Below, in pieces: positions 2-35,519 of a DNA stretch of 38,295 bases. Origin of the DNA: a virus (taxonomy: Duplodnaviria > Caudoviricetes); IMG/VR virus record IMGVR_UViG_3300044513_001921, positions 1 to 38,295 of that record; one strand, 5' to 3'. Below the pieces are notes generated by a model. The model had not been told where the DNA came from, did not search any database, and saw only the letters and a program-made list of their open reading frames with translations. Both the position numbers and the translations under genes were made by a program. The stretch's first letter is position 1. Every line of letters begins with the position of its first letter.

Positions 2-3000
2 GATTTTGAAAAAATTGAAGAAGGCAATTTCTATACACAAGATACTGTCGCAGTTGATATTATTGCTGTTGGAGAAGGTGCCTCTGGCACACCTTTCTTG
101 AAAGAATGGAACTATAATAGATTTAGAAAGTTAGAAGGCGATCTAGATACTGACAACGGATACATTTTCCAGAACTACAATAGCGTTCTGGAATATGGTT
201 ATGGTTACGTTGCCAACCCCAAAGCACTTAGAGTTGCTCTCAATGACAACTTAAACAACGCTGGAACTGAACCAGCAACTAAAACTCACTCACCAATCAT
301 TGGATTTGCATATGATGGCAACCCAATCTACGGTCCCTTTGGTCATCAAAATCCATTAGATCCACAATCTGCTATTGTTAGAATGACTTCTAGTTATTCT
401 ATAAAGAATACCAGAACTGGTGGTCCAGCCGTTAACAGATATCCTTTAGGGACTTTTGTTAATGACTATCAGTATGTTCATCGTAGTGGATCTTTAGATC
501 AAAATAATGGAAGATTTTGTATTACTCCAGATTTTCCAGAAGGAACCTATGCTTACTTCATCACTATTGATGCAAATCAAACACCTAAGTTCCCTTATAT
601 CATAGGAGAGAATTTCTATTCATTGCCAGTGGATAGTAATTACAATTCTCCAATTAATCAAAATGATATTCCAAAAAATGCTAAGAGACTTTATACTCCA
701 GGAATGTCCAGAAATGGTGAGGGATTAATTGCCAGTATTTCTGAAATTTCTTCTGGTACAGTAGATAGTATTAATTCTGTAAGTTCTTCTAATAATTTTT
801 CTGTAAATTCGAAAGTATACTTTGATAATAGAGGAACAGAAGGCGATAAGGTAGAAGCAAAAGTCTCATCTGTCAAAGGAAAACAAATTAATTATCTTCA
901 AAGTAAAGAAGATAAAGTTGTAAGACTTACAACAATTCAAACAGCGTTCTTGTTTGGTGATGATACGTTAAGACAACCATCCTCTGGAGCTAGGGGAACG
1001 ATTATTGGTACTGTAGCAAATGACAACGTAATTGTTCTGAAAGAGGTTGTAGGAGAATTTGATAATACTGGAACTTTCTCCGCTGATATTAAGACATTCT
1101 CTCTTCTTCTAGATCAAGATAGTTCCTATACAGAAGGAGCAAGACTGCAACTGACAAACGGCATAGACTTGCCAATTGCTGCAGCAGAAATACTAGAAAG
1201 CACAAATCGTCAAAATGTTGTTACTATTAAAGTAGTAAATCTAACAGAAGAAGACGGATATCCTGCTGGAACAGATTTGCCAAGTAATTGGATAATTGAT
1301 GATGATTACTTCCTGAGATCTTCAAATCTTTTCAATACTGTAGGATCTAGAATTGTAACCCTTACATCCTTAAGCGATAACTTAGAACCATTCGAAGTTA
1401 ATCAAAGTGTTGCTTTGGTTGAAACAGCAACTCCACATGGTCTCGGTATTGGTGATAAAGTAACGGTTGATATTAATCCAGATGATACCACCAAAACAAA
1501 GACTTATTATCTAAGAAAGCGTCTATATCAAGAAGCAACACTTATTGCGCCAACTGCTGAAACGGAAATTGATGATACTGGTGTTGGAAGATTTCAAATT
1601 TTAAATGGTGGAGCTGAGTATACTCCAGGAACTTATAGTAATGTGCCATTAACTGGAGGAAGTGGATCTGGTGCTACTGCTATTATTGTTGTGTCTGATG
1701 CAGGAGTTGTGTCATCTTTACAAATTCAAGAGAAAGGATCTGGATACAGCAAGGCAGATTACCTTGGTGTTGATGATGAGAGTTTAGTAAGATCTACTGC
1801 TTCTCTCGGAACAATGAGATTAGTAGTTTATGTTGATCATGTTGGATTTGCCTCTGGAGCGTCAATTCTAAAAGTTAAAGATGGTACAAAATATTCCGAG
1901 GGAGATTTGATTTCTATCGGCAATGAAGTTTTAGAGATTAGTTCAATCGATGGTAATGCTCTTACTGTTTTGACGGGTAAAGAAGGAACAAAACAAGTTG
2001 ATCATTATAACGGTCAGCAAGTATCTCTATACAATCCAAGATACAATTTTGATCCTAATTACCAGATTTTCTCTGGGAATAACTCAGGATATATTCAATC
2101 TTATGATAGAGAAACTCAAAAAATTGTCATTGTCTATGATTATGGAACTTTACTGGAAAGCGCAAACTCTGTGAATTTAAGTTCTGGTTTCTTTGATAGC
2201 AGCACACCTTCCAGATTAGTAAAAGTTAGATCTGCCAGTGAAGTTGATTATAAGTTTGAATTCTCAGAAGATAACGTTACTTTTACTAAAAATCCTAATA
2301 TTAATGTTCAAGAGTATTATAGGTACGTATTTGATACCTCACATTCTAGTTTGACTGGAACATATTTTGATATGTCTCCAAGTAGAAGTTTAAATTTAGA
2401 AACTCTAGAAAAAACTGCTTCCAATATTCTTCCTGGAAGTGTTGGAGCATTTACTGATGTTAAGTTTGGATTTGGTCCCAGATTAACTCAGAACACATAT
2501 CAAACAAAAACAGGAACTAATTTCACCAATTTCTACTATTATGATAGAAAGGGTGTAGTAAATTCTGATGGATCTTTCCTAAAGGTCATCACAGATCCCC
2601 TACAAGGAACAAAAACAATCAACTATGTAACATCTAATAGATTTGTATATGATATTTCCAGTGAACCACTATGGGATGGTTCTGGATCTATCCAGTATAC
2701 AACAAGTGGTCAATTTGCTATTGGAGAAATTAACGAATACTCAATTACCAACCTCGGATTGAATTATAAAAAAGTTCCTGTAATTCAAGGAGTAGATCCA
2801 AATCCAGATTTTAAAGCATATGCTACCGTTTTATTTGATACTAATTTAAATTTAATTACTGGTGTTAATATAACTGAAAGAGGTTCTAATTATGTCAATC
2901 CAAAGATTGTCATTACAGATGGCGATGGAGTAAATGCTGAGTTTGATATTATTGTAAGAAACGGAGAGATTTTCTCAATCACCGTAAAAAATCCTGGTAG

Positions 3001-6000
3001 AAGTTTTACATACAAACCAGAGATTGAGATTGTTGAAGGCGAAGTTGAAGCATACGCAGAAAGCGCCACCATTGGCATTCCAAGAAGTATCACCATCGTC
3101 AACAATGGAGGAGCATATCACTTAGACAAAACAGTATCTTCTACGTTTAGTTCAAATCTTGTTTTGAATTTGTCTTCTGTCAATGGAGATTTCCAAAACG
3201 GTGAAGTTGTTGTACAAAGAATTGGAAATCAAGAAGTTTTTAGAGCAACAGTAGTTGAATGGAGAGAAGGATCAAATCTACTTAAAATTAAGAATGCTCA
3301 GGGTAAAGTTAGAGAAAATCTAGAAATCAGATCTACTTTAACAAATCCAGCAACTGGAATTGTCAATGCTGTTTTTGTGACAACATTTACTGACAAGATC
3401 AGTAGTTTCTATGACAACATTGGTTACTTTAAATCTGATAGAGGTAGGATTGGCAATTCAAATCAGAAGATCTTAGATAGTTTCTTCTACCAAGATTATT
3501 CGTATGTTGTAAAATCTAAGACACCAATTGATCAGTGGCGAGAACTTATCAAGTCAACTACACACCCAGCAGGATTTAAACTGTTTGGTCAAGTAGACAT
3601 CGAAACTGAAGCTGCCACCACAATGCCAGAAGAGATGCCAAAAGCATCTCACTTCAGTGTTATTCAACTTTGGGATCCCGAAAAGAATAGAATTACTGTA
3701 GAGAATACTACAAGGGTTGTTACACAGTCTATTCAAAAAGTAGAAAATCAAAGAATTCGTAAAGCAGTTGGTTCTGCATCTACTACAGAATTCAATTTCA
3801 ATGAAATGCGTGCATTTGAGGTTACTCTTGCTGCGCCATTTGATGGATACTATGATACTGATGGTAGGTTACAAGGAACTACAACTTTCCAACTACTAAA
3901 TGATTTGAATGTTCCATTCACTCCATATGATGAGAAAAATCTTATCATTAGTTTAGATGGTGTTCTTCAAGATCCAGGAGTTTCTTATACAGTTTCTGGT
4001 GATAATATTATCTTTAGTCAACCTCCTCTTGGTCCATATCAAAAACAAACTGGCGAAGGACAGACAGATGTTACTTCTTACAAAGGAGTTACTTTCTATG
4101 GCAAATACGTAGCATTCAAAGACAATCAGTATAACAACAGATATTTTAAAAAGATTAGAAATATTTTCCAAAGAAATGGAAGATGGTTAGATGCTGCTAA
4201 TCAGGTAGAAAGGAATAGAGAATTTATTGTAGAAGAAACTGTTGAATATGGAAGAGAGACTTATCCATCTTTAGATTGGAGCACCAAGAGAGATGATTAT
4301 GAAGAAAACTTGAGATCTGTTCTTGAAGCATATGAGCATGATTTAAGATTTGGTGGAAATGTAAAGACCGTTGACTATACATCAATTTTCAACGAAGATG
4401 ATGATTATCTTTATATTCAAAATAATAGAACAGAAACTAGAGATATCTTTAGTTATGCCACACGCCTAGCAAAACTTGCTGTCAGAAATTGGGATTATGT
4501 AGATACATCAGTTAGCTACATTCAAGGTTCTCGACAAATGACGATTACAGACACTTCCAATATTGCTATTGGAATGTTTGTAAGTTCTGGCAGAGCATAT
4601 CCTGTTGGAACCCATGTTGTTTCCATTGATAGTGATACTCAAGTAACACTTAACAATGGTGCTTTGGCAAACTCTGGTGGCAGCGGTGGTGCTCCAGCAG
4701 GAACTACCTTGTTAAGTGGAACATCAACTGGTGGTTCTATTCCAACTGATACGGGTGCTGTCGCTCCTGGTGACACATATGAAGTTCCTCCTGGCATTAC
4801 TGTTACTGCTCCACTGTCATTCTCTGGTGCAGATCAGGCGACATTCTCTTGGAGTGGCATTAATAATGGAACGTTCTATGATGCTGCCAATTTAATCGAA
4901 GCAAATAAGGCATACATCCAAGAGGAAACAATTGGATGGGCAGAAGCAACTTATCCTGGTATTGATTGGAATTCAAAAGGTGCTAAGTGTCAGAGAGATC
5001 TAGGTTTCTTAGTAGATGCTTATGTTTACCACCTTCGCTTTGGTGGCAATCAAAAGATTGTTGAATTTGGACAATTATATTATGTAAAAGCAAAATATCC
5101 AGAATCTGAGAACTTACTATTCATCAACAACGAACTAACAGAAAGTCTCGCTGCATTTGAATATGCAAAAGACTTAATGATCCAAGCAATGAGAAATACT
5201 CTCGGTGCTGGAACCTATACTTCTATTTCTCCTGTAGTTGACAACAGTATTCTCATTGATACTCAACTTCCATATTGCATAGAAGTTGAGAGTGCCTTAG
5301 ACAATTTCAATAGCATTGTCGATACTATTCTTTCAGAAGGAAAGGGTCTTGTAGAAGTATCTACTCAAAATCCAAATAAAGAAGGTAACTGGTCGAAAAA
5401 ACTTACATATTCAAATTACAACATCATTAATGATCCTCTACTACTCAGTCAAGAGTGCAACGATGTAATTTCGTCTCTAGATTCTTTATATGATAATGTT
5501 GACACTATCTTGCAGCAGCAATCCGTAGGAAAAACGTTGCCAGACTATGTTGATGGAGAAACAAAAGAGTTCGAATTGTTCTGGGATGATGGATCCAATG
5601 TTATCTTAGAACAAGATGAAAATCTATTCTTGTCTTTAAATGCGGTTCTTCAAAGATCAAAGTATTCGGAAGAATATCCCCCATCTGATGCATATTTTAT
5701 TGATAAGTCTGTAATTCCAAACCGAATTAAATTTGATGTTGCTCCAATTTGGGATCAAGATTTTAGTGCCAAGAGTATTGGAGAACCAACGGCAGTAGAA
5801 AAAGTTGTTGGTGTTGGTGTTGGTAATTATAAGAGACTTACCATTGATTATGATTTGGTTGACGAAGTAAAATCTGGTCCGTTCCTAATTCTAGATGTAG
5901 AAGATAATACTGTTCAATCTGTAGAATCTCAAGATAACCTTTATGTATTTTTGGACGGTGTTCTTCAAAGAAGAGGATATTCATATAGAATATCTGGTCC

Positions 6001-8404
6001 AAACATTTATTTCAATGTTCCTATTCTTAAGGATATGAAGATTGATATGAGATATCTCTATGGTAGAGATGTTGGACAAATCTTAAATATCTATGACTTT
6101 GCTCCAGATACTTATTACGCCGTTGCTAGATTTAGTATTGAAGGTGTACCATCAGTAGAAAGCGATTTATATTCGAAGTATTTCTGGATGGGAGATAAAG
6201 TAGGTCTTCCAATTGATTGTTGGCAGTTAAAAGCAGATGGAACTTATAATGTCATTGGTAATGTAAGTAACTTGTTTGTTGCATCAGATGGTACTATGAA
6301 TTGGGATGTAAGATCTCACAATGGTGCTATTATAGATGGATTGCCCATCATCTTTGGTGTTAAAGGATACTATGCTTTAACTTATACAATTTCAAATTAC
6401 ACCAACACTGCATTAGTGTATAACACTGATGATGTTGGAAGAAAACTCCTTCAAGATACCAATGGTATTTGGGCAGGAACTGTAATTGGTAAGTCTTATA
6501 GAAATCCCTTCTTGTACCTTTCTAATGGAGATAAAATCCGTGTAGAAGGAGAAGATAAGTTTAGAGAAATTAAGAGACTTCCCGAAGTAGTTACGAGTAA
6601 AGATGGCAGAGACGGCGAGATGCTTACCGATGATATCTTCGGTGCAGTATCAGTAGAATCTTATACTGGTGTTACTCGTGGAGAGGGACTATCTGTAATT
6701 GCAAATATTGAAAATGGTTCTGTTGTTTCATTGACATGGAACCAACGTAGTTATGAACCAATAACCCAACCAACGGCATATCAATACTTCACTCCCCCAG
6801 TATTGAAATTTATTCCTGAAAATGGTGAGGGTGGTGGCGCAAAAGCTGCTGTTATTGTTGATGGTTTAAGAGGTCAAGTAATTAGCGTTGATCTTATTGA
6901 TGGTGGATCTGGTTATACAGAAGCACCTCGCGTAGTTGTTTCAAGAAGATTTGAAATTCTTACAGAAAGAGATATTGGCGTTTCTCTGATTAATCTCAGA
7001 ATGAGCCCGATTGTTTCTGGATTTGGTATGACTGCCGTATCTACTATTGATACTATTAGTGATGCTGGTCTTCAAGCAATCGATAGCATTTCTAGTGTTA
7101 CATTTGGAGAACCAAATGAGGCATCTATTGATATTCAGAGACAACTAACTCCAGATGAAATCGAAGTATTCTCTATTGGAGGAACTCTCGATCCTAAGAG
7201 AGATTATGTAGAGGTCTTTAGTGAAACAGGAACTTCTGCTGATGAAGTACAAGTCATTGATACATTCTACGAAGCTACTGTTGTTACAGCAGAAGTTCAA
7301 GATATTGTATCTGTCAACTCTGTTTCTACAGTAAGTAGATTAATTACAACTACCCTAGAGAACTTAATTCCTAACGATGCGTTGTCTAATGTCAACTTCT
7401 ATGAGGTTGGCGCATATCTACAGGTCGATCTTGATCCTACAGATACTGTCGTATACATTGCAGATACTACCAAGTTCGATAACTTCGGACTTCTCTTAAT
7501 TGGTAATGAGACCGTCAGGTATCCTAAGAAGATCTCTGATCGTTTCTTGAGAGTAGAGAGAGGCGAGAAAGGAACAACTCCGCAATTCTGGGCAGCAGGA
7601 ACATTCCTAAGACAAATCCCAGATGTTGTATCTGTAGCATTTGGTGGAGTTGTAGAGGTTCAGAGCGAAAGCGATGTCTCTATGGTCAGTGCATCGTCTA
7701 CTGCGGGTGGTGTTGAGAGAACTACACAAAGACAAATTTCTTCACCAGCAGATTTCTCGATAACAAGAGAAGCATTGGAAGTATTGATTATTCCACCACC
7801 TGGAGGAGTAATTGACAGATATGAAGAGACTGTCTTCATCTCGGATCCATTGGAGCAAAGAAATGGCAATTTCGTAGATCTTGTTACAGCATCTGATGGA
7901 AAATATTATGTAACCAGGAGAGATACTACCGAACAAGTAATTACAAATAGCTTGTATACAGGAACATCTGAATATATTGGCAATTACACAAAGACTAATG
8001 CTGGACACAGAATTGGTCACTTCGATGGTATCTTTGATGATGGATTTGCTGATGTGTCTGGATTATCAATCTTAGAATTCGACACTTATTTCCCAGCTGT
8101 AACAATTAGAGATTTTTCTGAAAGATCTAATTCTAGTTATACAATTAGTGGCGAATACTTTAACTTAATGCCTCCTTCTATTCAAAGTCCAGTCACCATA
8201 ACTTCATCATCGGGAACTATTGCTGGAACTATTATTGTTGTAGACACAACACATTTCCCAGATGAAGGATACTTGTTTACAAGTGGTGGAGTTGTAATTG
8301 AGTACACTGGTAAGACATCTACTTCATTCACTGGATGTTCTGCTCTAAGGGGAGGAACAACCATTGCAAATGGTCAAGAGATAATTCCATTCTCGATTAC
8401 CTAA
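2..8404 (+). CDS. gp7: Giant baseplate wedge initiator (T4 gp7-like, cyanophage type), 5'-partial
   Basis: The frame is open from position 2 (DFEKIEEGNFY...PFLKEW), so the TTG at 98 is not the true start. It contains the wedge motif ILDSFFYQDYSYVVKS...WRELIKSTTHPAGFKLFG (~3470-3590), a YHYH-like domain, repeated GG.GY and LDGVLQ modules, and lies directly upstream of gp8. Confidence 0.85.
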   Translation, partial: DFEKIEEGNFYTQDTVAVDIIAVGEGASGTPFLKEWNYNRFRKLEGDLDTDNGYIFQNYNSVLEYGYGYVANPKALRVALNDNLNNAGTEPATKTHSPIIGFAYDGNPIYGPFGHQNPLDPQSAIVRMTSSYSIKNTRTGGPAVNRYPLGTFVNDYQYVHRSGSLDQNNGRFCITPDFPEGTYAYFITIDANQTPKFPYIIGENFYSLPVDSNYNSPINQNDIPKNAKRLYTPGMSRNGEGLIASISEISSGTVDSINSVSSSNNFSVNSKVYFDNRGTEGDKVEAKVSSVKGKQINYLQSKEDKVVRLTTIQTAFLFGDDTLRQPSSGARGTIIGTVANDNVIVLKEVVGEFDNTGTFSADIKTFSLLLDQDSSYTEGARLQLTNGIDLPIAAAEILESTNRQNVVTIKVVNLTEEDGYPAGTDLPSNWIIDDDYFLRSSNLFNTVGSRIVTLTSLSDNLEPFEVNQSVALVETATPHGLGIGDKVTVDINPDDTTKTKTYYLRKRLYQEATLIAPTAETEIDDTGVGRFQILNGGAEYTPGTYSNVPLTGGSGSGATAIIVVSDAGVVSSLQIQEKGSGYSKADYLGVDDESLVRSTASLGTMRLVVYVDHVGFASGASILKVKDGTKYSEGDLISIGNEVLEISSIDGNALTVLTGKEGTKQVDHYNGQQVSLYNPRYNFDPNYQIFSGNNSGYIQSYDRETQKIVIVYDYGTLLESANSVNLSSGFFDSSTPSRLVKVRSASEVDYKFEFSEDNVTFTKNPNINVQEYYRYVFDTSHSSLTGTYFDMSPSRSLNLETLEKTASNILPGSVGAFTDVKFGFGPRLTQNTYQTKTGTNFTNFYYYDRKGVVNSDGSFLKVITDPLQGTKTINYVTSNRFVYDISSEPLWDGSGSIQYTTSGQFAIGEINEYSITNLGLNYKKVPVIQGVDPNPDFKAYATVLFDTNLNLITGVNITERGSNYVNPKIVITDGDGVNAEFDIIVRNGEIFSITVKNPGRSFTYKPEIEIVEGEVEAYAESATIGIPRSITIVNNGGAYHLDKTVSSTFSSNLVLNLSSVNGDFQNGEVVVQRIGNQEVFRATVVEWREGSNLLKIKNAQGKVRENLEIRSTLTNPATGIVNAVFVTTFTDKISSFYDNIGYFKSDRGRIGNSNQKILDSFFYQDYSYVVKSKTPIDQWRELIKSTTHPAGFKLFGQVDIETEAATTMPEEMPKASHFSVIQLWDPEKNRITVENTTRVVTQSIQKVENQRIRKAVGSASTTEFNFNEMRAFEVTLAAPFDGYYDTDGRLQGTTTFQLLNDLNVPFTPYDEKNLIISLDGVLQDPGVSYTVSGDNIIFSQPPLGPYQKQTGEGQTDVTSYKGVTFYGKYVAFKDNQYNNRYFKKIRNIFQRNGRWLDAANQVERNREFIVEETVEYGRETYPSLDWSTKRDDYEENLRSVLEAYEHDLRFGGNVKTVDYTSIFNEDDDYLYIQNNRTETRDIFSYATRLAKLAVRNWDYVDTSVSYIQGSRQMTITDTSNIAIGMFVSSGRAYPVGTHVVSIDSDTQVTLNNGALANSGGSGGAPAGTTLLSGTSTGGSIPTDTGAVAPGDTYEVPPGITVTAPLSFSGADQATFSWSGINNGTFYDAANLIEANKAYIQEETIGWAEATYPGIDWNSKGAKCQRDLGFLVDAYVYHLRFGGNQKIVEFGQLYYVKAKYPESENLLFINNELTESLAAFEYAKDLMIQAMRNTLGAGTYTSISPVVDNSILIDTQLPYCIEVESALDNFNSIVDTILSEGKGLVEVSTQNPNKEGNWSKKLTYSNYNIINDPLLLSQECNDVISSLDSLYDNVDTILQQQSVGKTLPDYVDGETKEFELFWDDGSNVILEQDENLFLSLNAVLQRSKYSEEYPPSDAYFIDKSVIPNRIKFDVAPIWDQDFSAKSIGEPTAVEKVVGVGVGNYKRLTIDYDLVDEVKSGPFLILDVEDNTVQSVESQDNLYVFLDGVLQRRGYSYRISGPNIYFNVPILKDMKIDMRYLYGRDVGQILNIYDFAPDTYYAVARFSIEGVPSVESDLYSKYFWMGDKVGLPIDCWQLKADGTYNVIGNVSNLFVASDGTMNWDVRSHNGAIIDGLPIIFGVKGYYALTYTISNYTNTALVYNTDDVGRKLLQDTNGIWAGTVIGKSYRNPFLYLSNGDKIRVEGEDKFREIKRLPEVVTSKDGRDGEMLTDDIFGAVSVESYTGVTRGEGLSVIANIENGSVVSLTWNQRSYEPITQPTAYQYFTPPVLKFIPENGEGGGAKAAVIVDGLRGQVISVDLIDGGSGYTEAPRVVVSRRFEILTERDIGVSLINLRMSPIVSGFGMTAVSTIDTISDAGLQAIDSISSVTFGEPNEASIDIQRQLTPDEIEVFSIGGTLDPKRDYVEVFSETGTSADEVQVIDTFYEATVVTAEVQDIVSVNSVSTVSRLITTTLENLIPNDALSNVNFYEVGAYLQVDLDPTDTVVYIADTTKFDNFGLLLIGNETVRYPKKISDRFLRVERGEKGTTPQFWAAGTFLRQIPDVVSVAFGGVVEVQSESDVSMVSASSTAGGVERTTQRQISSPADFSITREALEVLIIPPPGGVIDRYEETVFISDPLEQRNGNFVDLVTASDGKYYVTRRDTTEQVITNSLYTGTSEYIGNYTKTNAGHRIGHFDGIFDDGFADVSGLSILEFDTYFPAVTIRDFSERSNSSYTISGEYFNLMPPSIQSPVTITSSSGTIAGTIIVVDTTHFPDEGYLFTSGGVVIEYTGKTSTSFTGCSALRGGTTIANGQEIIPFSIT

Positions 8405-24290: not shown

Positions 24291-27200
24291 ATGAGCTTTC
24301 AGATTAATTCCGATAGGGAAAAAATTACTGGTAATAAAACCAGTATTTTGGGACAGCAAGAAGTCACACTGCGATCAGGTAGTGGAAATCAAGAAGTAGA
24401 GATTATTCGTGCTCAAGTTGATCCAAATACAAACCTTCCCCGTGTAGGTATTAATAGAAGCGGAAATAGAGTTGAAAAAATCACTGTCACGAATGGTGGT
24501 ATTGGATATTCTCTAGAACCAACTGTAAATATTTCTGCTCCAGATGATCCAACTGGAGCTCAAGCTCTTGCTAGCGCATCCATCTTTAATGGTCAAGTTA
24601 GTGGCATTACTATCAACGATTCTGGTAGTGGATATTTTTCTCCACCAACAGTAACAATTACTGGTGGTAATGGTGGTGGTGCAACTGCAGAAGCAGTTCT
24701 CGACACCATTGACTATGAACTTGATATTAACGGTGCTATTAGAACGTCCACGTCTATCATTTCTGATACGGCGAGAATTCTAAACATAGACGTTGACAAT
24801 TTTGTCACTCCAGACCTTGAATTGCGTGGTCCGCACTTCAAGACCTACATGAACAACACTGGCATAGAATTGCTGCCAACTCCAACAACTCTGTTTAAGG
24901 GAGACTACAGATGGGTTGGATCAAACGTTTATGAAGCGTTGAATGATGGTCAGACAGCAACTCTCCTCCCACTTCATGATGATGGTATCGAAACTTCTGG
25001 AACTGTACAACTGAAGCACATTGGTTTCAGAATTACCGATCCTAATGGATATCTTTATAACGAAACTGGTGAATCGGGTATTTTCCCACGTTCTATTACT
25101 CCACAACTAGGAGATAGATCAGATAAAATTGCAACTACAGAATACGTCCTTAACCTAGCAACGAATGACGTTGGTGGTCGTATCTATGTTTCTCAGCAAA
25201 TTGGTAATGATGCTAACGATGGTCGCTCGGCAGTTGCTCCTGTTAGAAGCATTAAGAGAGCATGTCAATTAGCATGGGCAACTCCTGGTGTAAAAGAAAC
25301 AATCATCGTTGCTGGTGGAGATTATACAGAAGATAACCCAATCTCCATCCCACCAGATGCTTCTGTCGTTGGTGATAACCTCCGTCTTGTAATTATCAGA
25401 CCAGCAAACCCACAGAAGCACATCTTCAAGTTTGGTGATAAGAACTATGTCATTGGTGTTACTTACAGAGACTATATTGACGTAAATGGCAGATCCCAGC
25501 ATACATGGGATTTCGCAATGGTCTTTGATGATAAGCAGCGCATCACATATGACCTGAATACAAACGGAGATTTTGGACTTGATTGGCCAATTGGTCACCA
25601 ATATTTTGGAACCCAGCAATTCTTATCAACGTTCGTTTCAAACCTAGGTTTGACACAATTAACAGCTGGTCAATTTGTTAAAGGTTCTTCTGGTGCTTCT
25701 CTGGGACAAATTCTAGAAGTTACTTTTGATGAGACTGATACTAACGAACCAGATCACCACCTGACTGGTACAGCTCTGTTTAAAGTTCTTGCTGGTGCAT
25801 TTACTCAGACAGATGTATTCAGATATGGTGGTATCGGAGCAAAAGAATTTGAAAACGATACTGCATATGCATTAAATGATATTGTCTGGACACCAGATTT
25901 CACTTATACAGTATCTGTAGCTGGTACATCACCAGCTTCTGGTGCTCCAACTCACACTACAGGCGCTGTAACTCTCGGAACCGCAGAATTTACTTTCTTA
26001 AGAAACACATATACTTTCTCTTCCAGAGAGATTAGATCAACTCGTGCTGAGGGTGAAGTTGTATATTCAAACACTCAAACAGAAGAAGCTTATGCTACTA
26101 CTGCTGGAGGAGAAGTACCTATTGTAAGACTTGACTTTACCCAGCAAGGAACATTCACTGGTGGTTTTGGTGGAGATGATGATGTTGGCGGTATTGTATT
26201 CTACACCAACGCACTGATTGGATTTAATAATATCCACGACTTTAAAGAGGGTGATGAAATTTTCATCTCAGGAATGCCAACTGATGCACCCGATCTTTCC
26301 TTCTTAAATGGATACCAAAGAATTTACAAAGTTCTAGAAGATGCTGATGGTCGTGCAAGAAGATTTGTAATTCCTAAGAAAGCACCAGCTGCTGAAGGAT
26401 ATCCAAATACAGATAACTATATTCCTGGATCAAACGCAAAGGTAAGATTTGCTTGTCATTCGGCAACTTTCACTCTACTAAACTCACCAAACAAATTTGA
26501 ACCAGCAACACCAGTTGCAAGACGTTTCCAAGATGCTTGCTTACAGATCAGAAACAATATTGATTATATTGCAGATGAAGTAGTAGGTAGAGTTAATGCG
26601 GAGTTTGCAAAATACTACTACTCTGCTTATGAGGTTGTTGATGTTGGATTAAATACGACCTTTAAAATTTACCTAGGTTCTTCTACATACACCCACACTT
26701 ATATTAGTGGTGGTACTGTAACTGTAGGTGGCACTGTATATAATGTAGACAATTTTGTTTGGGATAATTTCTCTACTGGAGAAGCGACATTAACACTAGA
26801 TCAATTAGTTACTATCGCAGAAGACGAAACTGTAAAGATTGAAAATCTACTCCTTGAGTGTTCTTTAGGTCAAAAAATCTATCCAAGTTTTAGTATTCCA
26901 GTAAGTGATGACAAGTGTAAGCGTGACGTTGGACACTTCATCAATGCTATTCTACAGGACTTGGAATTTGGTAGCAATATTCATACAATCAGAGCTGCTG
27001 AGAAGTATATTGCTAATGCTCAAATTACATATGTAGATGGTGAGATTATTCAAACTGTACGTGCATTTGAATATGCTCGTGAGTTAATGATTTACGCGAT
27101 GCGTAAATGGAGAACTGGAAATGGAACTCCAGCAGATACTCTATATGCAGCATCATATACAAGTCTAATTCCATATATCGATCCAACAGTCATCGATGAT

Positions 27201-30200
27201 ACGGCATCTCCTGCCTGTGCAAACGTAGCATCTGCTATTGATACACTTGTATATCTTTTTGTTGATGTTGTAACAAATAACACTAGTGGAACATATCTAG
27301 ATGCTGCATATCTGATTGCAAGAAACAAAGATCTTATTGCAGATCAAGCATATCTAAACACCAAAGTTCAGTATCCATCTTTAGGTCTTGATGACATCAA
27401 TGAGAGAAAGTGCCGTAGAGATATTGGATATATTCTCTCTGGTCTAGTACGAGACTTGTGCTTGGGCGGAAATGCTGGTGTTGTCGAAGCAGCAGAAGCA
27501 TACTTCAGTGGTTCCGATCTTACTGGAATTCCAGAAGCACAAAGAGACGAAACTGTATACGCATTTAACGAGACAAGAACTCTATCTATCGCAGCAATGC
27601 GTAATTGGAGCGATGGTCTAGGATTTAATACAAAGGTCAAGACATTTGATGACGTAGACGATTATGTTCGCGTAACTGCAGATTCTACTCTGTCATTTGG
27701 AACTGGAGCAATCACCGCAGAAGCATGGTGCTATTGGGATAGCACCAACTCTGGAACTACAGAAGATGCATTCGAAGTATTTGGTTCAAGCAACGACAAC
27801 TTCAACTTCTTCTTTAGCGAAACTAACATTGGTTTCTGGGCTGGCGGGGGAGTTGTTACTAACTTCCCAGTTACAATCACTAAAGATGAATGGCACCATG
27901 TTGTAGTAACTAGAGATGGAACTGGAACAAACCAAGCTAGAATTTATCTAGATGGTGTACTGGCAGGAAACTGGACATGGAGCACTGATTATGCTGCGTT
28001 TGCTACTTATCTGTTGATTGGTAGAAATAATCTTGCTGGTAGCGTATTCGCTGATGGTAAGATGACCAATGTGAGGGTTAGTAATTCCTCACTCTATAGT
28101 GCCAATTTCTCAGTACCAACTCACACTTTACCAACACTAGGATCGACAGTATTCAACTACTTCAATGTCGGTGAAGAATTTACTAATGGAATGGCAGTCA
28201 CCGATATTGGTGGTATTGGTCCCGCTGTAGAAGAATATATTCTCAGAACATTTACTACTACATCTTCTCCAATTCCTCAGTTTACTGATGCAACAATCCT
28301 AGAAGACACTGGATCTCCTGATTGTGCAGGTGTAGCTGCTACAATTAACACAGAGTTTGACACAATTCAAGATATTCTTGATGGAACTGTAGCAGCTGGT
28401 GCTACCAATAGAACTTATGGTATTACATACGATACCTCCAGTATCGAAACTTATCCAGATAATTATATTACTGACCTACAAGGCAACATTGCCACTATCA
28501 GATCGGTATATGATGATCTCCCAATCATTGAAGCATCTCCATATACACAGAACTCTTCCATCATTTCATTCAAAGGTGGTAGTGGTGCTCTGGTTGATGG
28601 TTCTAAAGTTAAGCAACCAAACTGTCCATTTGCTGGTCTAAACCCAGATGGAACAGCAGAATTCCCCAACCAGGGTAAATCGATGGTTGCATCCGCATTC
28701 ACCATCGTTTCTCAGGGTGGTAGTGCAACAGGATATAAAGTTATCAATGATGGTTACACCCAGTTGGTTTCTGTCTTTGTTATCTTCTGTCAAGACGGTG
28801 TTCTTTCTGAGAGTGGTGGTTATGCTTCTATCACTAACTCTGCTACAAACTTTGGTATCTATGCTCTAAGAGCAACTGGATACAGAGCGGAGGCATATAG
28901 TTTCGACAGAGGATATGGAGAAGGCGCTTCATACCAGAGAGCAACTGTTGATACTGTAACAGAATCCGTAACTGGAAGAACTGAATTTACTATCTCAAAA
29001 TTAGGTAGATCTCCTCTTGAGCACTACATTGTTAAACTAGACGGTTATCGTTCAATTGATGAAGAAACAGAATATTTCATCGACTTTATTGATCCAACAA
29101 CGGTAACACTTGGTCCAGACTTCGGAGCAAAGGTTACGCTATCAGATGGAACTGGTGCTTCTCCAGCAAGATATGTTGATGAATTAACTGATCAAGAAAT
29201 CGATCCTCTGGAACTAGTAAACTATCATCAGTCAACTTACGGAACCACTCTGAAGGTTTCTCTACATAGACCTTCAATTGTTAACTCTTCTTCCCACACC
29301 TGGGAATTTGCAGGTTCTGGTACTTCATATGAGGCACTACCAGAGAACGGTGGAACCAAGATTGAGGCATACGAGCAAGTATCAGAAAACTACGGTCGTG
29401 TTTACTGTTCTGGTACTGATGAACTAGGTGACTTTAAGGTTGGTACATTTGCACAGATTGAAAACAGAACTGGTAATATTACCTTTACTGGTACGGTTAC
29501 CATCTCGGAAGTTGAATTCTTGAAACTGAGAGGCGGTGACGTTGTTGTTACTGGTTTCGATGCTGATGATAACCTTGGTGGTGCTACTTCAAGCAACTCT
29601 AAACTACCAACTCAAAAGGCAGTTAGAGATTACATTACCAATAACCTCGGTCCATATCTCAATAAACCATATTCAACTAACCCAGTTCCTAGAGCACTAG
29701 TTGAACTTACTGATAGTGGTAAGATTAACATTGACCAGATCCCTGCTCTAAGACCATTTAACGTCTTCACAGTTGCAGATCTAGATGAAAGATTGGCATT
29801 AGAAGGTGCTCTTGCTGGTGATATCGCAATTCAGCAAGACACCAATGGATCATACATTCTAAACAATGACAATGATAGTCTATTCCTTGGTTTTGCTGTA
29901 GATCCAACTATTCAGTTTACTCTAGGTGATGTATTCACTGGTAGTGTATCTGGTGGTAGATTACAAGCAACAGAATACAGACAGGGTGTTGTATATCAGA
30001 TTACGATTACAGACGCAGGATCTGGATATGTTACCGCTCCTGCGGTAACAATTTCTGGAGGAAACCCACAAGCAGGTGCTGTTGCTGCACTAGCTACTGC
30101 AGAAATTGCTGGTGGTCAGGTAGTTGCTGTTACTATCGAACTCTATAATGGATACATCGGTGGTAAAGGATATACTATCCCACCAACTGTTACGTTTAGT

Positions 30201-33200
30201 GGTGGTCTAGGAGCTAACGGTGTTGCTGCACAAGGTGTTGCTTTAATTGAAAGCAGACTTTATGGTGATATTGTTAACAGGGTCAAGATGACCGAAGCTG
30301 ATGAGTTTGATTCTAGCGATACTGTTCCAACAACAGTACCAGTTGATAGAGTTATCAACACATCTGCATCTGATGTTAACAACTGGGTATCTCTCGCATC
30401 TACAAGTTTCTCTGCTTCTCAGATTGTTGAGGGTATTATTTCAACTGCAAGATTGGCAAGCAACTCCAGTTCTGCAAACTCATTCACATTCCTAAGAGGA
30501 GACCAATCATACGCTCCTACTGTTCAGTCAATTAAGGGTGCTGAAACTAGATACTTTGCTGTCCTTTCCCAGACAGCAAATATCAATGCTACTCAGTTAA
30601 TATTCCCAGCAAATGGTAATATGCTGATTGGTAATGAACTTGTTTCTGGTAATGGAATTCAAGCAGACACTACAATTTCTGCTGTAACCACAGAAGGTTC
30701 TGCAACTACAATTACTATTGACAGACCTCTGACAGCACAGATTAATTCTGGTTCCGTCGTTGAATTTAACAGAGGATCATCTCCACTAATTTTTGAAGCA
30801 AGTTATACACAGAACCAATTCATTGATCAGGTTCTTATCCTGAACGGTGGTAGTGGATATGCTGCGGATCTTGGAGGTAACAACGTTTACTTTGACGTTC
30901 CTCTAACTGGAGGAAATGGAACGGGACTGAGAGCAAATGTTAGGGTTGACAATGGTGTTGTTACTAAGGTAACTGTTACTTCTCCTGGTACTGCTTATGA
31001 TCAAGATTTTACTGTTAATGCTGATCCACCAGAGATTGGATCTGGATCTGGTCTAGTTCTTCTCGCCAAGACATCTACTGTAAATAAGAACTACGCAAAC
31101 GTTGCTATTGACGTTGCAAGAGCTGGTGGCGAAGGTTCTACAATCAGTACCGATGACTATGGAACAGTTGGTGTTGTTAGACTTCGTAAGTCACAATTCA
31201 CCATTGGTGCAGATGGAAATGGTTCGGTCACACTTAAAACTGGTGCTGGTAGTGGACTAAACGCTGACCTTCTTGATAACAGACAAGGTGAGTTCTATCA
31301 GAATGCTTCTAACATTCTAACTGGAACATTGGATCCAGACAGATTATCTGGAACTTATTCAATTGATGTTGATGGTAATGCAACTTCAGCATCAAGACTA
31401 CAGTCTGATATCAGTGGTGCTACTACCGCACCTGCTCCAACTCTATACCTTGGTGGTATGCAGTTGGAGAACAAGTTCAACAACACGGTCAATCTATATC
31501 AGCAATGGCCAGAGGTAGGTCTACAAGATGCTACAACTGGAAACTCTGGTAGACATGCTCTGTTAACTGTCAGACCTGGAGGTTCTGGTTCTGATACTCA
31601 GTATGGTGGTCTCAAGCAAATTGCCTTCTCTGATACTGGCAATGACGAAAGAACCAACATGTACATCCGTGGTACTGGTTTCGGTGTCACTCAGTTCGGT
31701 GATTGGAATAAGATTTGGACTTCTGGTAATGACGCTTCTTCTGGCAGAGATGAAGGTCCTGACGCATTCAGATTTAAGAACAAAACATCTGAGTGGTACA
31801 GAGATGTAACTCATCACAATGAGGGTGAGTTGTTTGATAGCAGACTTCCTGGATTTATGTCTGCTAAAGGATTTGATAATAAAATCGAAATTAAAGAACC
31901 TCTAGCACAATCAGGAAATGCTCTCTTGTCTGGTAAGAAAGCATACAGAATTCTCTTTGATAATGTAATCCTAAATGATGCTCAGTATGGAACTATCTTC
32001 GGTATTGGTAATACTATCAACATCTATGATGTAACTGGTGCTCAGGCATTGGGTCAGGTATACATCAGGAACATGGAACCATTCCCAGATTCCAATGATC
32101 CTACAAATAACTATAGCATCCTAACGGCAATTCTATTGACTGGTGGATTTGCTGGATCATATCAGTTGGGTCTAGCATCTGCTACTGCTGTTACTAAGTA
32201 TGCTGCTTGGACAGATTTTGCTCTAGCAGATGATAACACATATACCGCTGCATCTCTCGAAGTTGATTCTGGCACAGCAAACCTAAGACTTGGTAGAAGA
32301 ATTGCTGCTAATACAGGTACATCTCCTGGTATCTACTTCAGTTCTTCCCAGGCATTTGCTCCAAACTATAACTCTGCAATTGTTGCTTCTGGTGGTACTT
32401 CATCGGATGGTAGTGGTTCTCTAAACATTCTAGTTGGATCTAACACTGCACTCACTGCAAATAATAGTCCAATCTGGCATGAAGGAAACACAGAGTTTAC
32501 TTCCACCATCGGTTTCTCCACTTTCACTGGTCAAACACTGAATGTAAGAAACGCTGTAATTCGTGACACAACTGGAAGTTTTGAAGCACATGATATTACC
32601 CTGATCAATGATGCTCAAGGTAATGCTGGACGTATTATTGGTGCTGCATCACTCAACGTTCTGAAAGCTGGCGACAGCATGACTGGAACGCTGAACATTC
32701 TTAACTCTGGTGGTCCAACTGACCCAACTTCTAACCTCTATGTTGAGGGTACACTAACGGTACAAAGAGAAGTTGCATTTGCTCGCAATGTTAATGTTGA
32801 CGGTAACGTATTTACTGTTGACTACACCAACGACAGAGTTGGTATTAACACTTCACAGGCAAATGCAAGACGCCCACTGCATGTAAGTTATGCTTCAACA
32901 GAAACTGATGTTGCTGCTGGCGTAATTGGAATGACAGCGGGAACTACTGCTGGTGCTCTAATTCAGAATACCAACAGCAGTGCAAATACATTTGCTGCTC
33001 TTGACTTCCGTGCTGAAACCGCAGACGGTAGAATTGCGTATAAGAAGGATATTAGTGGTAGTGATCAAGCATCGTTCTACTTTGTTGCAGAAGCTCCAGC
33101 AGCAACTGCTAACACTGTACTGATCGTTAAAGGAACTGGTCAGTTAATTCCTAAGCAAGATGGTTATGGTGAACTAGGAACTTCAGCAGTAAGATGGGAT

Positions 33201-33920
33201 AAACTCCATGCTGACGAAGTACATGCCACTGAGTACATGGCAGTTAATAGAGGCACCACTAACACTGGAGCTTATCTATATCTACAAGGTGCAACTGGTG
33301 GATCTTACGCTGGTGGTCATCTATCTAACTTCCGTCTCACCAACCAAGTTATTGCAGATGACGTATTTGCAATTCAAGCAACTGATGGAAGTGGTGCTGC
33401 TACCTATCAAGCAACGCCAGCTCTTGCGATTAAGGGTACTACCAATAGAGTTGCTATCAATACCACTGCATTCTCTGGTGTTGATACTTCCGATGGAGGT
33501 AATGTCACCAGAGACTACAACCTGAACGTCCAAGGTGATATTAACATCAACGGTCAGTTGTTCCAGAACAACGCCGAGTTTGTTACCTCAAGATGGACAG
33601 AAGCGACCAACGGAAATGATATCTACAGATTGTCCAAGGTTGGTATCAACATTGTTGATCCTTCTTACGAATTGGAAGTTGGCGGTAGACTTAATTTCAA
33701 TGGAACTACAATGACTGGTCAAGCAGTTGAGCAGACAATGTATATCAACGGTGATAGACAGTGGTTGGATCCATATGGTGTTATGAAGACAAACCGTAAC
33801 TCTATTAATCAATCGATTACGGTTCCTTCCACATCCAACACATTAAGTGCTGGTCCTATCACTATAAATAGTGGAGTAATAATCACCATTGCAAATGGTG
33901 GTGTATGGAGTATCGTATAA
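24291..33920 (+). CDS. Giant multidomain tail fibre / virion structural protein
   Basis: Contains GG.GY..P.V.I repeats, a KIATTEYV fibre motif, a pectin-lyase-like beta-helix start (IYVSQQIGNDANDG..APVRSIKRA..GDYTEDNPI..SVVGDNLR), a LamG/ConA-like domain, helical KCxRD modules, GSGLNADLLD and RVGIN fibre motifs, and the C-terminal SAGPITINSGVIITIANGGVWSIV cap seen in marine phage fibres. Confidence 0.8.
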   Translation: MSFQINSDREKITGNKTSILGQQEVTLRSGSGNQEVEIIRAQVDPNTNLPRVGINRSGNRVEKITVTNGGIGYSLEPTVNISAPDDPTGAQALASASIFNGQVSGITINDSGSGYFSPPTVTITGGNGGGATAEAVLDTIDYELDINGAIRTSTSIISDTARILNIDVDNFVTPDLELRGPHFKTYMNNTGIELLPTPTTLFKGDYRWVGSNVYEALNDGQTATLLPLHDDGIETSGTVQLKHIGFRITDPNGYLYNETGESGIFPRSITPQLGDRSDKIATTEYVLNLATNDVGGRIYVSQQIGNDANDGRSAVAPVRSIKRACQLAWATPGVKETIIVAGGDYTEDNPISIPPDASVVGDNLRLVIIRPANPQKHIFKFGDKNYVIGVTYRDYIDVNGRSQHTWDFAMVFDDKQRITYDLNTNGDFGLDWPIGHQYFGTQQFLSTFVSNLGLTQLTAGQFVKGSSGASLGQILEVTFDETDTNEPDHHLTGTALFKVLAGAFTQTDVFRYGGIGAKEFENDTAYALNDIVWTPDFTYTVSVAGTSPASGAPTHTTGAVTLGTAEFTFLRNTYTFSSREIRSTRAEGEVVYSNTQTEEAYATTAGGEVPIVRLDFTQQGTFTGGFGGDDDVGGIVFYTNALIGFNNIHDFKEGDEIFISGMPTDAPDLSFLNGYQRIYKVLEDADGRARRFVIPKKAPAAEGYPNTDNYIPGSNAKVRFACHSATFTLLNSPNKFEPATPVARRFQDACLQIRNNIDYIADEVVGRVNAEFAKYYYSAYEVVDVGLNTTFKIYLGSSTYTHTYISGGTVTVGGTVYNVDNFVWDNFSTGEATLTLDQLVTIAEDETVKIENLLLECSLGQKIYPSFSIPVSDDKCKRDVGHFINAILQDLEFGSNIHTIRAAEKYIANAQITYVDGEIIQTVRAFEYARELMIYAMRKWRTGNGTPADTLYAASYTSLIPYIDPTVIDDTASPACANVASAIDTLVYLFVDVVTNNTSGTYLDAAYLIARNKDLIADQAYLNTKVQYPSLGLDDINERKCRRDIGYILSGLVRDLCLGGNAGVVEAAEAYFSGSDLTGIPEAQRDETVYAFNETRTLSIAAMRNWSDGLGFNTKVKTFDDVDDYVRVTADSTLSFGTGAITAEAWCYWDSTNSGTTEDAFEVFGSSNDNFNFFFSETNIGFWAGGGVVTNFPVTITKDEWHHVVVTRDGTGTNQARIYLDGVLAGNWTWSTDYAAFATYLLIGRNNLAGSVFADGKMTNVRVSNSSLYSANFSVPTHTLPTLGSTVFNYFNVGEEFTNGMAVTDIGGIGPAVEEYILRTFTTTSSPIPQFTDATILEDTGSPDCAGVAATINTEFDTIQDILDGTVAAGATNRTYGITYDTSSIETYPDNYITDLQGNIATIRSVYDDLPIIEASPYTQNSSIISFKGGSGALVDGSKVKQPNCPFAGLNPDGTAEFPNQGKSMVASAFTIVSQGGSATGYKVINDGYTQLVSVFVIFCQDGVLSESGGYASITNSATNFGIYALRATGYRAEAYSFDRGYGEGASYQRATVDTVTESVTGRTEFTISKLGRSPLEHYIVKLDGYRSIDEETEYFIDFIDPTTVTLGPDFGAKVTLSDGTGASPARYVDELTDQEIDPLELVNYHQSTYGTTLKVSLHRPSIVNSSSHTWEFAGSGTSYEALPENGGTKIEAYEQVSENYGRVYCSGTDELGDFKVGTFAQIENRTGNITFTGTVTISEVEFLKLRGGDVVVTGFDADDNLGGATSSNSKLPTQKAVRDYITNNLGPYLNKPYSTNPVPRALVELTDSGKINIDQIPALRPFNVFTVADLDERLALEGALAGDIAIQQDTNGSYILNNDNDSLFLGFAVDPTIQFTLGDVFTGSVSGGRLQATEYRQGVVYQITITDAGSGYVTAPAVTISGGNPQAGAVAALATAEIAGGQVVAVTIELYNGYIGGKGYTIPPTVTFSGGLGANGVAAQGVALIESRLYGDIVNRVKMTEADEFDSSDTVPTTVPVDRVINTSASDVNNWVSLASTSFSASQIVEGIISTARLASNSSSANSFTFLRGDQSYAPTVQSIKGAETRYFAVLSQTANINATQLIFPANGNMLIGNELVSGNGIQADTTISAVTTEGSATTITIDRPLTAQINSGSVVEFNRGSSPLIFEASYTQNQFIDQVLILNGGSGYAADLGGNNVYFDVPLTGGNGTGLRANVRVDNGVVTKVTVTSPGTAYDQDFTVNADPPEIGSGSGLVLLAKTSTVNKNYANVAIDVARAGGEGSTISTDDYGTVGVVRLRKSQFTIGADGNGSVTLKTGAGSGLNADLLDNRQGEFYQNASNILTGTLDPDRLSGTYSIDVDGNATSASRLQSDISGATTAPAPTLYLGGMQLENKFNNTVNLYQQWPEVGLQDATTGNSGRHALLTVRPGGSGSDTQYGGLKQIAFSDTGNDERTNMYIRGTGFGVTQFGDWNKIWTSGNDASSGRDEGPDAFRFKNKTSEWYRDVTHHNEGELFDSRLPGFMSAKGFDNKIEIKEPLAQSGNALLSGKKAYRILFDNVILNDAQYGTIFGIGNTINIYDVTGAQALGQVYIRNMEPFPDSNDPTNNYSILTAILLTGGFAGSYQLGLASATAVTKYAAWTDFALADDNTYTAASLEVDSGTANLRLGRRIAANTGTSPGIYFSSSQAFAPNYNSAIVASGGTSSDGSGSLNILVGSNTALTANNSPIWHEGNTEFTSTIGFSTFTGQTLNVRNAVIRDTTGSFEAHDITLINDAQGNAGRIIGAASLNVLKAGDSMTGTLNILNSGGPTDPTSNLYVEGTLTVQREVAFARNVNVDGNVFTVDYTNDRVGINTSQANARRPLHVSYASTETDVAAGVIGMTAGTTAGALIQNTNSSANTFAALDFRAETADGRIAYKKDISGSDQASFYFVAEAPAATANTVLIVKGTGQLIPKQDGYGELGTSAVRWDKLHADEVHATEYMAVNRGTTNTGAYLYLQGATGGSYAGGHLSNFRLTNQVIADDVFAIQATDGSGAATYQATPALAIKGTTNRVAINTTAFSGVDTSDGGNVTRDYNLNVQGDININGQLFQNNAEFVTSRWTEATNGNDIYRLSKVGINIVDPSYELEVGGRLNFNGTTMTGQAVEQTMYINGDRQWLDPYGVMKTNRNSINQSITVPSTSNTLSAGPITINSGVIITIANGGVWSIV
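27645..28160 (+). other. Laminin G / concanavalin A-like domain within the 3209-aa protein
   Basis: FDDVDDYVRV...FGTGAITAEAW...DEWHHVVVTRDG...IYLDGVL...LLIG...FADGKMTNVRVSN matches the Laminin_G_3 pattern. Confidence 0.8.
33863..33870 (+). promoter_or_regulatory. T4 late promoter TATAAATA inside the 3' end of the fibre gene
   Basis: Exact consensus 57 nt upstream of the ATG at 33927. Confidence 0.7.
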
Positions 33921-34803: not shown

Positions 34804-35517
34804 ATGAAACTCTTTTTTGATGCTAATAACACGAAAGTCTTCGACGATGTTTTAGATCCCGAAGACTTTTCTAGTCTTTTTGATATGTTCAATTACCAAC
34901 CATACATTTTCCGAGAAAGTCAAGGAGAATGGAATAAAGTTTGGTCGTTGAAAGATGGACAGATCTTAATGGGTCGTCAAGTAATGTGGGCAATTAATGA
35001 AGAACCAGATCTTGACGGGGAGTATAAAATTCTGTTGCCCTATATCAGAAAGGTCAATGACATGATAACAAACTCTGGTTTGTTTGATTTGGATGATGTG
35101 TCTATGATTAGTATGACACCATATGTTTGGCCTCCAGAAACTGGATTGAGTTGGCATAACGATAGTCATTATCTTGGTGCCGTTACTTTCTATACACATA
35201 AAGAATGGAATCCAGAATGGGGAGGTGAATTTTTGACCTGTGAAGCGAACGAATATATCCAAGAGAATAAAGAAAATCTCACTTGGAAAATATTTGAAAA
35301 TAATGATTTGCATAATTTAATTATGGAAAGTGGATCTGGTCATTATTTTTATCCAAAACCAAATAGAGCTATTGTCAACAAAGGAGGTAAACATGGCATC
35401 CTCCATAAGGTTAATAAAAGCACAGCAAATAGTGGTCCCAGATTAACGTTGCAGTGTTTTATTCACTCAGTAGCACAGTTTCCAAAAAACGCAAAAACCC
35501 CACCAGTATATTTTTAA
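34804..35517 (+). CDS. 2OG-Fe(II) oxygenase (prolyl-4-hydroxylase-like)
   Basis: HxD motif (WHND), WNPEWGGEF, PKPNRA, a distal His (LHKV) and the 2OG-binding Arg (PRLTLQ). Confidence 0.85.
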   Translation: MKLFFDANNTKVFDDVLDPEDFSSLFDMFNYQPYIFRESQGEWNKVWSLKDGQILMGRQVMWAINEEPDLDGEYKILLPYIRKVNDMITNSGLFDLDDVSMISMTPYVWPPETGLSWHNDSHYLGAVTFYTHKEWNPEWGGEFLTCEANEYIQENKENLTWKIFENNDLHNLIMESGSGHYFYPKPNRAIVNKGGKHGILHKVNKSTANSGPRLTLQCFIHSVAQFPKNAKTPPVYF

Positions 35518-35519
35518 TC

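Follow-up and report, generated by a model that had tools for sequence, protein, structure and literature searches.

The closest described relatives of the domain reported here are the phycobiliproteins, among them ApcE, a linker of the phycobilisome in which the position of the Cys differs from the canonical one. According to the accessible parts of the corresponding reports, phycocyanin beta-Asp39 binds the pyrrole nitrogens of the bilin at Cys-153/155, i.e. acts as its counter-ion (PMC6614406), T-type lyases attach the bilin at Cys-155 (PMC2327270), and globins with a Cys-x-Arg-Asp (CxRD) site outside the phycobilisome, the BBAGs, bind bilins without lyases (PMC10151467). Bilin genes carried by phages are mostly taken to serve light harvesting by the host; their purpose is left open in the accessible parts of two studies (PMC10452541, PMC11480375). 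Here, a viral contig of 38,295 bases, about 20% complete and carrying the structural gene block of a T4-like marine cyanophage, was analysed over its whole length (hereafter the window). Its first open reading frame (ORF), ORF 2-8404, encodes a giant baseplate protein with a pair of modules, predicted to be nested, that are related to phycobiliproteins and that are likely to carry bilin.

The nested pair is organised within the ORF as follows:

2..8404, + strand: giant virion protein at the position of gp7 (baseplate wedge initiator), 5' end cut at the contig edge.
4184..4492, + strand: outer phycobiliprotein-like module, helices A-G, from motifs, inner-module profile, PF00502 and model.
4493..4849, + strand: beta-rich stretch inserted into the G-H loop of the outer module, upstream of the inner one (model strands 108-226).
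4871..5341, + strand: inner uninterrupted phycobiliprotein-like module, from motifs, HHalign, model and structural match.
5342..5446, + strand: linker back to the outer module, a low-confidence coil in the model with a conserved NW..YSNYNI segment.
5447..5515, + strand: final helix (H), assigned to the outer module and carrying Cys 5456 (model helix 426-448; alignments to residue 449-454).

The motifs and Cys residues proposed in an initial annotation of this DNA were all recovered at their coordinates and in frame with ORF 2-8404. The outer module starts at 4190 and displays TYPSL (4259), RDDYEENL (4289) and HDLRFGGN (4337) before LAVRNW, which ends at 4492. Its CxRD site is degenerate, with Tyr in place of Cys at 4298, and its beta-39-like Asp at 4190 is retained. 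The inner module starts at 4880 and has both a CxRD Cys of the alpha/beta-84 type (4988) and a C-terminal Cys of the beta-155 type (5276). The ORF product, 2800 residues long as truncated, contains 6 Cys in all, of which these two and Cys 5456 of the terminal helix make up 3. The profile of the inner module scored the N-terminal part of the outer one with 58.7 bits (E 1e-17), a repeat far beyond chance.

Searches with single sequences against Pfam, PDB sequences and the ESM Atlas gave nothing or almost nothing. Out of 30 module family members, one matched PF00502 (E 0.08). In the window, PF00502 was recognised in the outer module only (4142-4315, E 3.2e-4), with 15.4 bits and thus under the gathering cut-off of 22.2 bits, and the inner module gave no match to this family in Pfam. 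A profile built from 30 modules and searched against PDB sequences with E up to 10 returned phycobiliproteins in 27 of 28 rows, one entry named 'bacterial fluorescent protein alpha' being counted in, with phycoerythrin alpha as the best row (E 0.002). In a profile-profile comparison by HHalign, a sample of 400 out of 866 near-complete modules reached a probability of 96.5 (E 7.7e-10) against 22 phycobiliproteins, vs 0.1 for the reversed control. By subset, the probability was 95.5 for alpha subunits, 90.8 for allophycocyanin and 78.9 for beta subunits (reversed controls at most 0.6); with the shallow nested alignment it was weak (19.7%). Helices A-E are nearer to alpha subunits in sequence, and in the beta alignment the C-terminal Cys of the modules falls on the beta-155 Cys.

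Structure prediction was in agreement with the profiles. The inner module alone was predicted at a pLDDT (predicted local distance difference test) of 88 and a pTM (predicted template modelling score) of 0.86. Its best match among 48,161 chains was phycoerythrin beta (5aqd_M, chain 34-184; Z 15.4, root-mean-square deviation [rmsd] 2.4 A, 143 residues), followed by allophycocyanin and ApcE (Z 12.2-13.4; for ApcE Z 13.1, rmsd 2.3 A), while photocobilin domains gave Z 10.4-10.8. With Foldseek, the rows shown were all phycobiliproteins, the best at E 0.005, and E-values stayed above 0.001. The N-terminal X-Y helices are absent: the alignments begin at chain residue 34-38, and the sequence upstream is that of the baseplate protein. 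The predicted match therefore covers the globin core only, helices A-H. The 'phycobiliprotein-like' character given to these modules beforehand was thus borne out by both lines of evidence; on the profile alignments they are homologous to phycobiliproteins, with a predicted globin fold.

Conservation of the Cys residues was analysed at two depths. In the close set, consisting of the window and 30 close relatives, the equivalents of Cys 4988, 5276 and 5456 are present in 31/31 rows. The first of these is the inner CxRD Cys; the corresponding outer position is Tyr in 31/31. The proposal that the outer copy had lost its KCxRD Cys and retained the C-terminal one therefore holds for all close rows. 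Among 45 distinct outer segments, this position is Tyr in 34 and Cys in 11. For the module family as a whole, 1.84 billion representatives were searched with the profile and 1,643 clusters matched (E up to 0.001), with up to 37 module matches per protein; the best 150 were taken, a choice favouring long arrays. The statistics below were drawn from 1,671 hits in 167 proteins, modules being non-independent samples. The Cys, Arg and Asp of CxRD are kept in 94, 95 and 98% of modules (n=1,644), and the C-terminal Cys in 13% (n=814). The same three residues are invariant in 22/22 phycobiliproteins, and by alignment the Cys-x-Arg-Asp site is conserved in the phage modules.

An obligatory disulfide within the module is excluded both ways. 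The C-terminal Cys occurs in 74 of the 866 near-complete modules, in each case together with CxRD, and the near-complete modules without it retain the CxRD Cys alone in 628/675 cases; the outer module of the window has the C-terminal Cys alone. The initial annotation had argued against such a pair from the outer copy, and the 628/675 count supports this more strongly than first argued.

The fate of the other residues of the site was followed upon loss of the CxRD Cys. With the Cys present, Arg is found in 1505/1546 modules, Asp in 1546/1546 and a downstream Tyr in 1541/1546; in the 90 of 1,636 modules lacking it (from 50 proteins), the numbers fall to 46/90, 61/90 and 52/90, i.e. from 97 to 51% for Arg, from 100 to 68% for Asp and from 99.7 to 58% for Tyr. 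Other conserved columns are unaffected (e.g. 1522/1546 vs 89/90), and in 46/90 an aromatic residue (Phe, Tyr or Trp) has taken the place of the Cys. In the aligned modules, this co-variation of Cys, Arg, Asp and the Tyr, a residue of the pocket, is the pattern of a ligand site. At the second site, the beta-39-like Asp accompanies 47/50 modules with a C-terminal Cys vs 66/488 without, and it is invariant (31/31) in the outer modules of the close set. The Asn-35 position of beta subunits is not kept in the modules. The nested pair thereby offers a natural experiment, one module having both sites and the other the beta-155-type site only.

Given these patterns in the sequences, globin cassettes with covalently bound bilin on the virion are considered the most likely reading, with moderate confidence, and the virus particle is likely to carry bile pigments. 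The modules would be phycobiliprotein-derived globin domains in a baseplate protein, acting as sockets for the pigment. During infection, phycoerythrobilin or phycocyanobilin made by the host would be attached by thioether bonds. At the inner CxRD Cys this would happen spontaneously or with the help of host lyases, and at the two C-terminal Cys through a T-type lyase, plausibly the CpeT of the phage itself. Up to three bilins could thus be carried per chain here, the outer module being probably specialised to the beta-155-type site only. Candidate roles of the pigment may include light sensing for adsorption, photoprotection and rigidifying of the domain.

The distribution of modules and of cpeT bears on this proposal. 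Querying 50,697 cultured-phage records, 379 matched the inner module and 176 an array-type query. The names were all Synechococcus, Prochlorococcus or Cyanophage, save one marine single-cell virus, and no non-cyanophage homologue was found among these cultured phages with either query. In a set of 19 complete genomes, hand-picked and related, modules were matched in S-WAM2 (15), S-PM2 (10), P-TIM40 (8), P-HM2 (5), S-H38 (4), ACG-2014d (4), P-SSM4 (3), Syn9 (3), S-RIM2 (3), S-CAM7 (2), ACG-2014f (2) and S-SKS1 (1), and were not found in seven (P-SSM2, P-SSP7, S-SSM7, S-SM2, S-CRM01, P-TIM68, S-N03). cpeT (PF06206, E up to 0.001) was detected in 9/12 module-bearing vs 0/7 module-free genomes (Fisher p 0.003; 0.009 without the podovirus). 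It is located 1.3-1.5 kb upstream of a module-bearing tail gene in S-WAM2 and S-PM2, and does not have this position in P-HM2. As the virion proteins of many cultured cyanophages contain a domain that derives from phycobiliproteins and has its attachment sites intact, a substrate on the side of the phage would be at hand. The idea that phage bilin reductases exist to supply the modules was rejected for the cultured set, as the reductases do not track them.

Several points weigh against bilin attachment. The genome test itself relies on the hand-picked, related set. At a looser threshold, applied to 5 of the 19 genomes, ACG-2014d passes the cpeT cut-off and ACG-2014f gives an 11-bit trace, and S-SKS1 has a module and no cpeT even then; P-SSM2 and S-SSM7 likewise have none. 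P-SSM4, a Prochlorococcus phage, has both cpeT and a bilin reductase, but the CxRD motif and its Cys are missing from its three degenerate modules (W07, 70569-75686), and the two of them with the last helix covered also lack the C-terminal Cys. Of the complete genomes with modules tested for bilin reductases, 2/5 have them, as does P-SSM2, which is free of modules. The link between Asp and the C-terminal Cys is confounded with lineage (p 0.30 within 6 mixed proteins), and the inner modules of the close set have Asp in 16/31 and Lys in 15/31 at the beta-39-like position with the C-terminal Cys kept throughout. Compared with phycobiliproteins, about 7 residues are missing from the B-E loop, by which the 84 pocket is shaped, and a non-bilin globin is interleaved among the structural matches of the inner module, with a score not far below the best (Z 12.3 vs 15.4 for phycoerythrin beta).

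Part of this evidence fits a structural spacer free of pigment, in which the globin fold was captured once as a rigid helical block and CxRD serves folding or the formation of disulfides between chains, by which the particle would be stabilised once outside the cell. The repetition of up to 37 matches in giant proteins, the persistence of degenerate modules without Cys (the outer module of the window, the 90/1636 modules and those of P-SSM4) and the fold shared with non-bilin globins all speak for it. Such a spacer does not account for the decay of Arg, Asp and Tyr along with the Cys while other columns stay intact, nor for the aromatic residues replacing that Cys, as though a vacated cleft were being filled. 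Moreover, each of the two retained Cys corresponds to a canonical bilin site, and cpeT co-occurs with the modules. The spacer is thus regarded as a tentative explanation, on the unlikely side. The array proteins were recorded separately (L036-L043, P0018-P0167): they contain up to 37 matches in tandem array and are up to about 6,400 residues long, CxRD being mostly present and the C-terminal Cys absent. Three metagenomic contigs bearing such arrays (G003, G004, G007) are 16-20% complete, which implies very large phage genomes.

A mimic of phycobiliproteins, active in the cell or at its surface, seems improbable. It would bind antenna partners of the host (lyases, linkers, NblA), take up free bilin during assembly or act as an adhesin, and no stable chromophore would be present on the mature virion. 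Cyanophage names in all cultured carriers found and the location of the modules in baseplate and fibre proteins are compatible with this role. Against it, the X-Y helices are absent, and the conserved residues of the modules are those of the pocket, not of the interface. Arg 91 of the phycobiliprotein alignment has a role at the alpha-beta interface; it is invariant there and is Asp in 78% of modules.

If the modules do carry bilin, a further step can be considered: T4-like cyanophage particles would be biliproteins with bilins on baseplate and fibres, partly attached by their own CpeT, and the light absorbed would gate adsorption. This extension is held to be doubtful, and the role of the modules in light-dependent adsorption is speculative. 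In the accessible parts of PMC6628666, P-HM2 shows no adsorption in the dark, P-SSM2 adsorption is reduced in the dark and that of P-SSP7 is light-independent; S-PM2 is cited there as a phage whose adsorption depends on light even without photosynthesis by the host, and the possible light-sensitive part is named as receptors of the host or tail fibres. Module presence follows the need for light in these four phages (4/4; 5 matches in P-HM2 and 10 in S-PM2 vs none in P-SSM2 and P-SSP7), a tiny sample. Against light gating stand the light-enhanced adsorption of P-SSM2, which has no modules, and the BBAG globins, of which 3/4 tested are described as photoinactive or photoinert (accessible parts of PMC10151467). 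If true, light gating would give phage CpeT the substrate it has been missing and would explain by what mechanism adsorption depends on light.

The arrangement of the pair was investigated with an AlphaFold model of 458 residues comprising both modules, of moderate confidence (shallow alignment of 24 sequences, pLDDT 64, pTM 0.51). Along the chain, a first helical part (4-104) is followed by strands (108-226), a second helical part (232-389), a linker of low confidence and the last helix (426-448). The evidence for nesting in the model consists of alignment ranges, not contacts. Structural matches of the inner type cover about 230-390 (e.g. ApcE, Z 12.6, rmsd 2.3), whereas those of the outer type extend over about 1-450 with 107-136 residues aligned (e.g. 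DosC globin, Z 11.2, rmsd 3.0, 130 residues). Without the last helix, globin alignments of this length would not be possible, the outer module holding only about 105 residues in its N-terminal part; packing of this helix onto the outer module is thus predicted. As a profile match the terminal helix alone is weak (4.9 bits), so that its assignment to the outer module rests on the model and the homologues. The insert exceeds one module, with about 120 beta-rich residues (4493-4849) before the inner module, giving weak structural matches to phage tail beta domains (Z 6.6-7.7), and a linker of about 35 residues after it.

Homologues were compared by the span between a common upstream anchor and a downstream PDY motif, 33 rows having both anchors. 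This span measures 158 residues with one intact module (L060, L061), 443-452 residues with two modules as in the window, 604-606 residues with three modules, the extra one being inserted into the inner module after helix B and ahead of the CxRD helix, and 723-743 residues with an additional beta-rich insert at that same inner loop. Nesting is thus variable across the aligned homologues. The last Cys is located 28-30 residues ahead of the PDY anchor in 33/33 rows, and the last helix lies at a distance from it equal to that of helix H in un-nested homologues. The last helix of the window aligned with un-nested helix H with a score of 35, reached by 0/10,000 shuffles. That the inner module occupies the loop ahead of helix H of the outer one, as claimed at the outset, is supported by the model and the homologues; of the statement that one module had been inserted, the nesting stands and the extent is corrected by the beta-rich stretch and the linker. 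Recursive self-insertion of a globin domain is clearly exemplified here, the slot holding one, two or three modules, and nesting may have arisen because domain ends and loops tolerate insertions, the domain behaving as a stackable cassette. A crossed topology, in which the outer module is closed by the first C-terminal helix and the inner one by the last, or the last helix belongs to neither, is very improbable: the weak profile match of that helix, the poorly predicted linker in a model of pLDDT 64 and the closer likeness of un-nested helix H to inner helices speak for it, and the complete globin formed by the inner module alone (pLDDT 88), the separate alignment ranges of the two modules and the shuffling test speak against it.

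Triple nesting was observed in L053 (1908-3700), P0015 and L063, where all three modules retain CxRD. In L060 and L061 (2001-2500), gp7 has one intact module in the slot that holds nested modules elsewhere. These two fall within the triple-nested clade in a tree of the flanks (30 rows, midpoint root), and their last helix is nearer to inner helices (mean 45.7) than to outer ones (29.5), the outer being better in 5/31. They were therefore rejected as the ancestral un-nested state, and both points argue for later collapse as the likelier origin of the single-module form. Insertion as a historical event is inferred, as the only un-nested homologues look like secondary collapse.

Two further modules were located in the tail-fibre ORF 24291-33920 of the window:

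26526..27278, + strand: third module, with a break between helix B and the CxRD helix; Cys 26916 and 27216 kept.
27294..28382, + strand: fourth module, with a LamG domain in the G-H loop (PF13385 at aa 1121-1268); Cys 27411 and 28323 kept.

Taken together, their breaks lie in the same two loops that carry insertions at the gp7 position of the window and its homologues. An extra Cys, which could be assigned to no known bilin site, is present at 26538, in helix A of the first of them, and also in one S-PM2 module. In the S-PM2 record NC_006820 (L200, 165928-177267), 16 tRNA features are listed inside the module-bearing short tail fibre gene, which looks like an annotation coordinate error.

In the window, the 5'-truncated ORF 2-8404 (2,800 codons) is followed by gp8 (PF09215), then by a VrlC-like gene and the tail-fibre genes. 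Its product matches PHROG 4406 'virion structural protein', its N-terminal part gives PHROG 'baseplate wedge subunit' matches, and the Pfam search returned no gp7 family match. The closest cultured phage among the matches listed is Synechococcus phage S-WAM2 (87.9% identity across the inner module), whose orthologue of about 3,400 residues sits between gp6 and gp8; in P-HM2 the module-bearing gene carries the annotation gp7. The earlier naming as baseplate protein gp7 is hence retained by gene order, with the gp6/gp8 flanks of S-WAM2, and not by family match. The N-terminal part of the protein also contains a YHYH domain (PF14240, window 104-586), and two neighbouring 2-oxoglutarate/Fe(II) oxygenase genes follow the tail-fibre block (34804-36203). 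Among the 10 ORFs of at least 150 aa in the window, the contig being a fragment, no bilin gene and no BBAG-type neighbours (pre-PcyA, V4R, Fe-S genes) were found.

In the literature searched, with most subscription journals and supplements outside, no description of phycobiliprotein-like domains in virion proteins was found, nor in the accessible parts of PMC10452541, PMC13198022, PMC11480375 and PMC13446030. Compared with T4 gp7, the protein shares the gene order gp25-gp6-X-gp8 and differs by its size, as judged from the S-WAM2 orthologue, by many inserted domains and by the lack of a Pfam gp7 match. BBAG-1/3 and the photoglobins/photocobilins are, like the modules, non-antenna CxRD globins, the BBAG set being compared by description; unlike the modules they are cellular, and stand-alone or fused to B12 domains. 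The modules may originate from antenna proteins or, alternatively, from BBAGs. The bilin-binding domain of ApcE (LCM) is also a phycobiliprotein domain inside a large protein that tolerates a long loop insertion, whereas the module is repeated and viral. With the phycoerythrin and phycocyanin subunits (PF00502; CpeA/CpeB, CpcA/CpcB), the modules have in common the globin core A-H and the CxRD site, and with beta subunits the Cys at the start of the last helix and, in the outer and part of the inner modules of the close set, the Asp at the beta-39 position. They depart from these subunits by the missing X-Y helices and alpha-beta interface Arg, a shorter B-E loop and scores under the Pfam cut-off; one to dozens of copies are fused into giant virion proteins, with loops that hold inserted domains, including further copies of the module itself. 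The module would therefore work like a phycobiliprotein core, with a predicted bilin, without being a strict member of the family.
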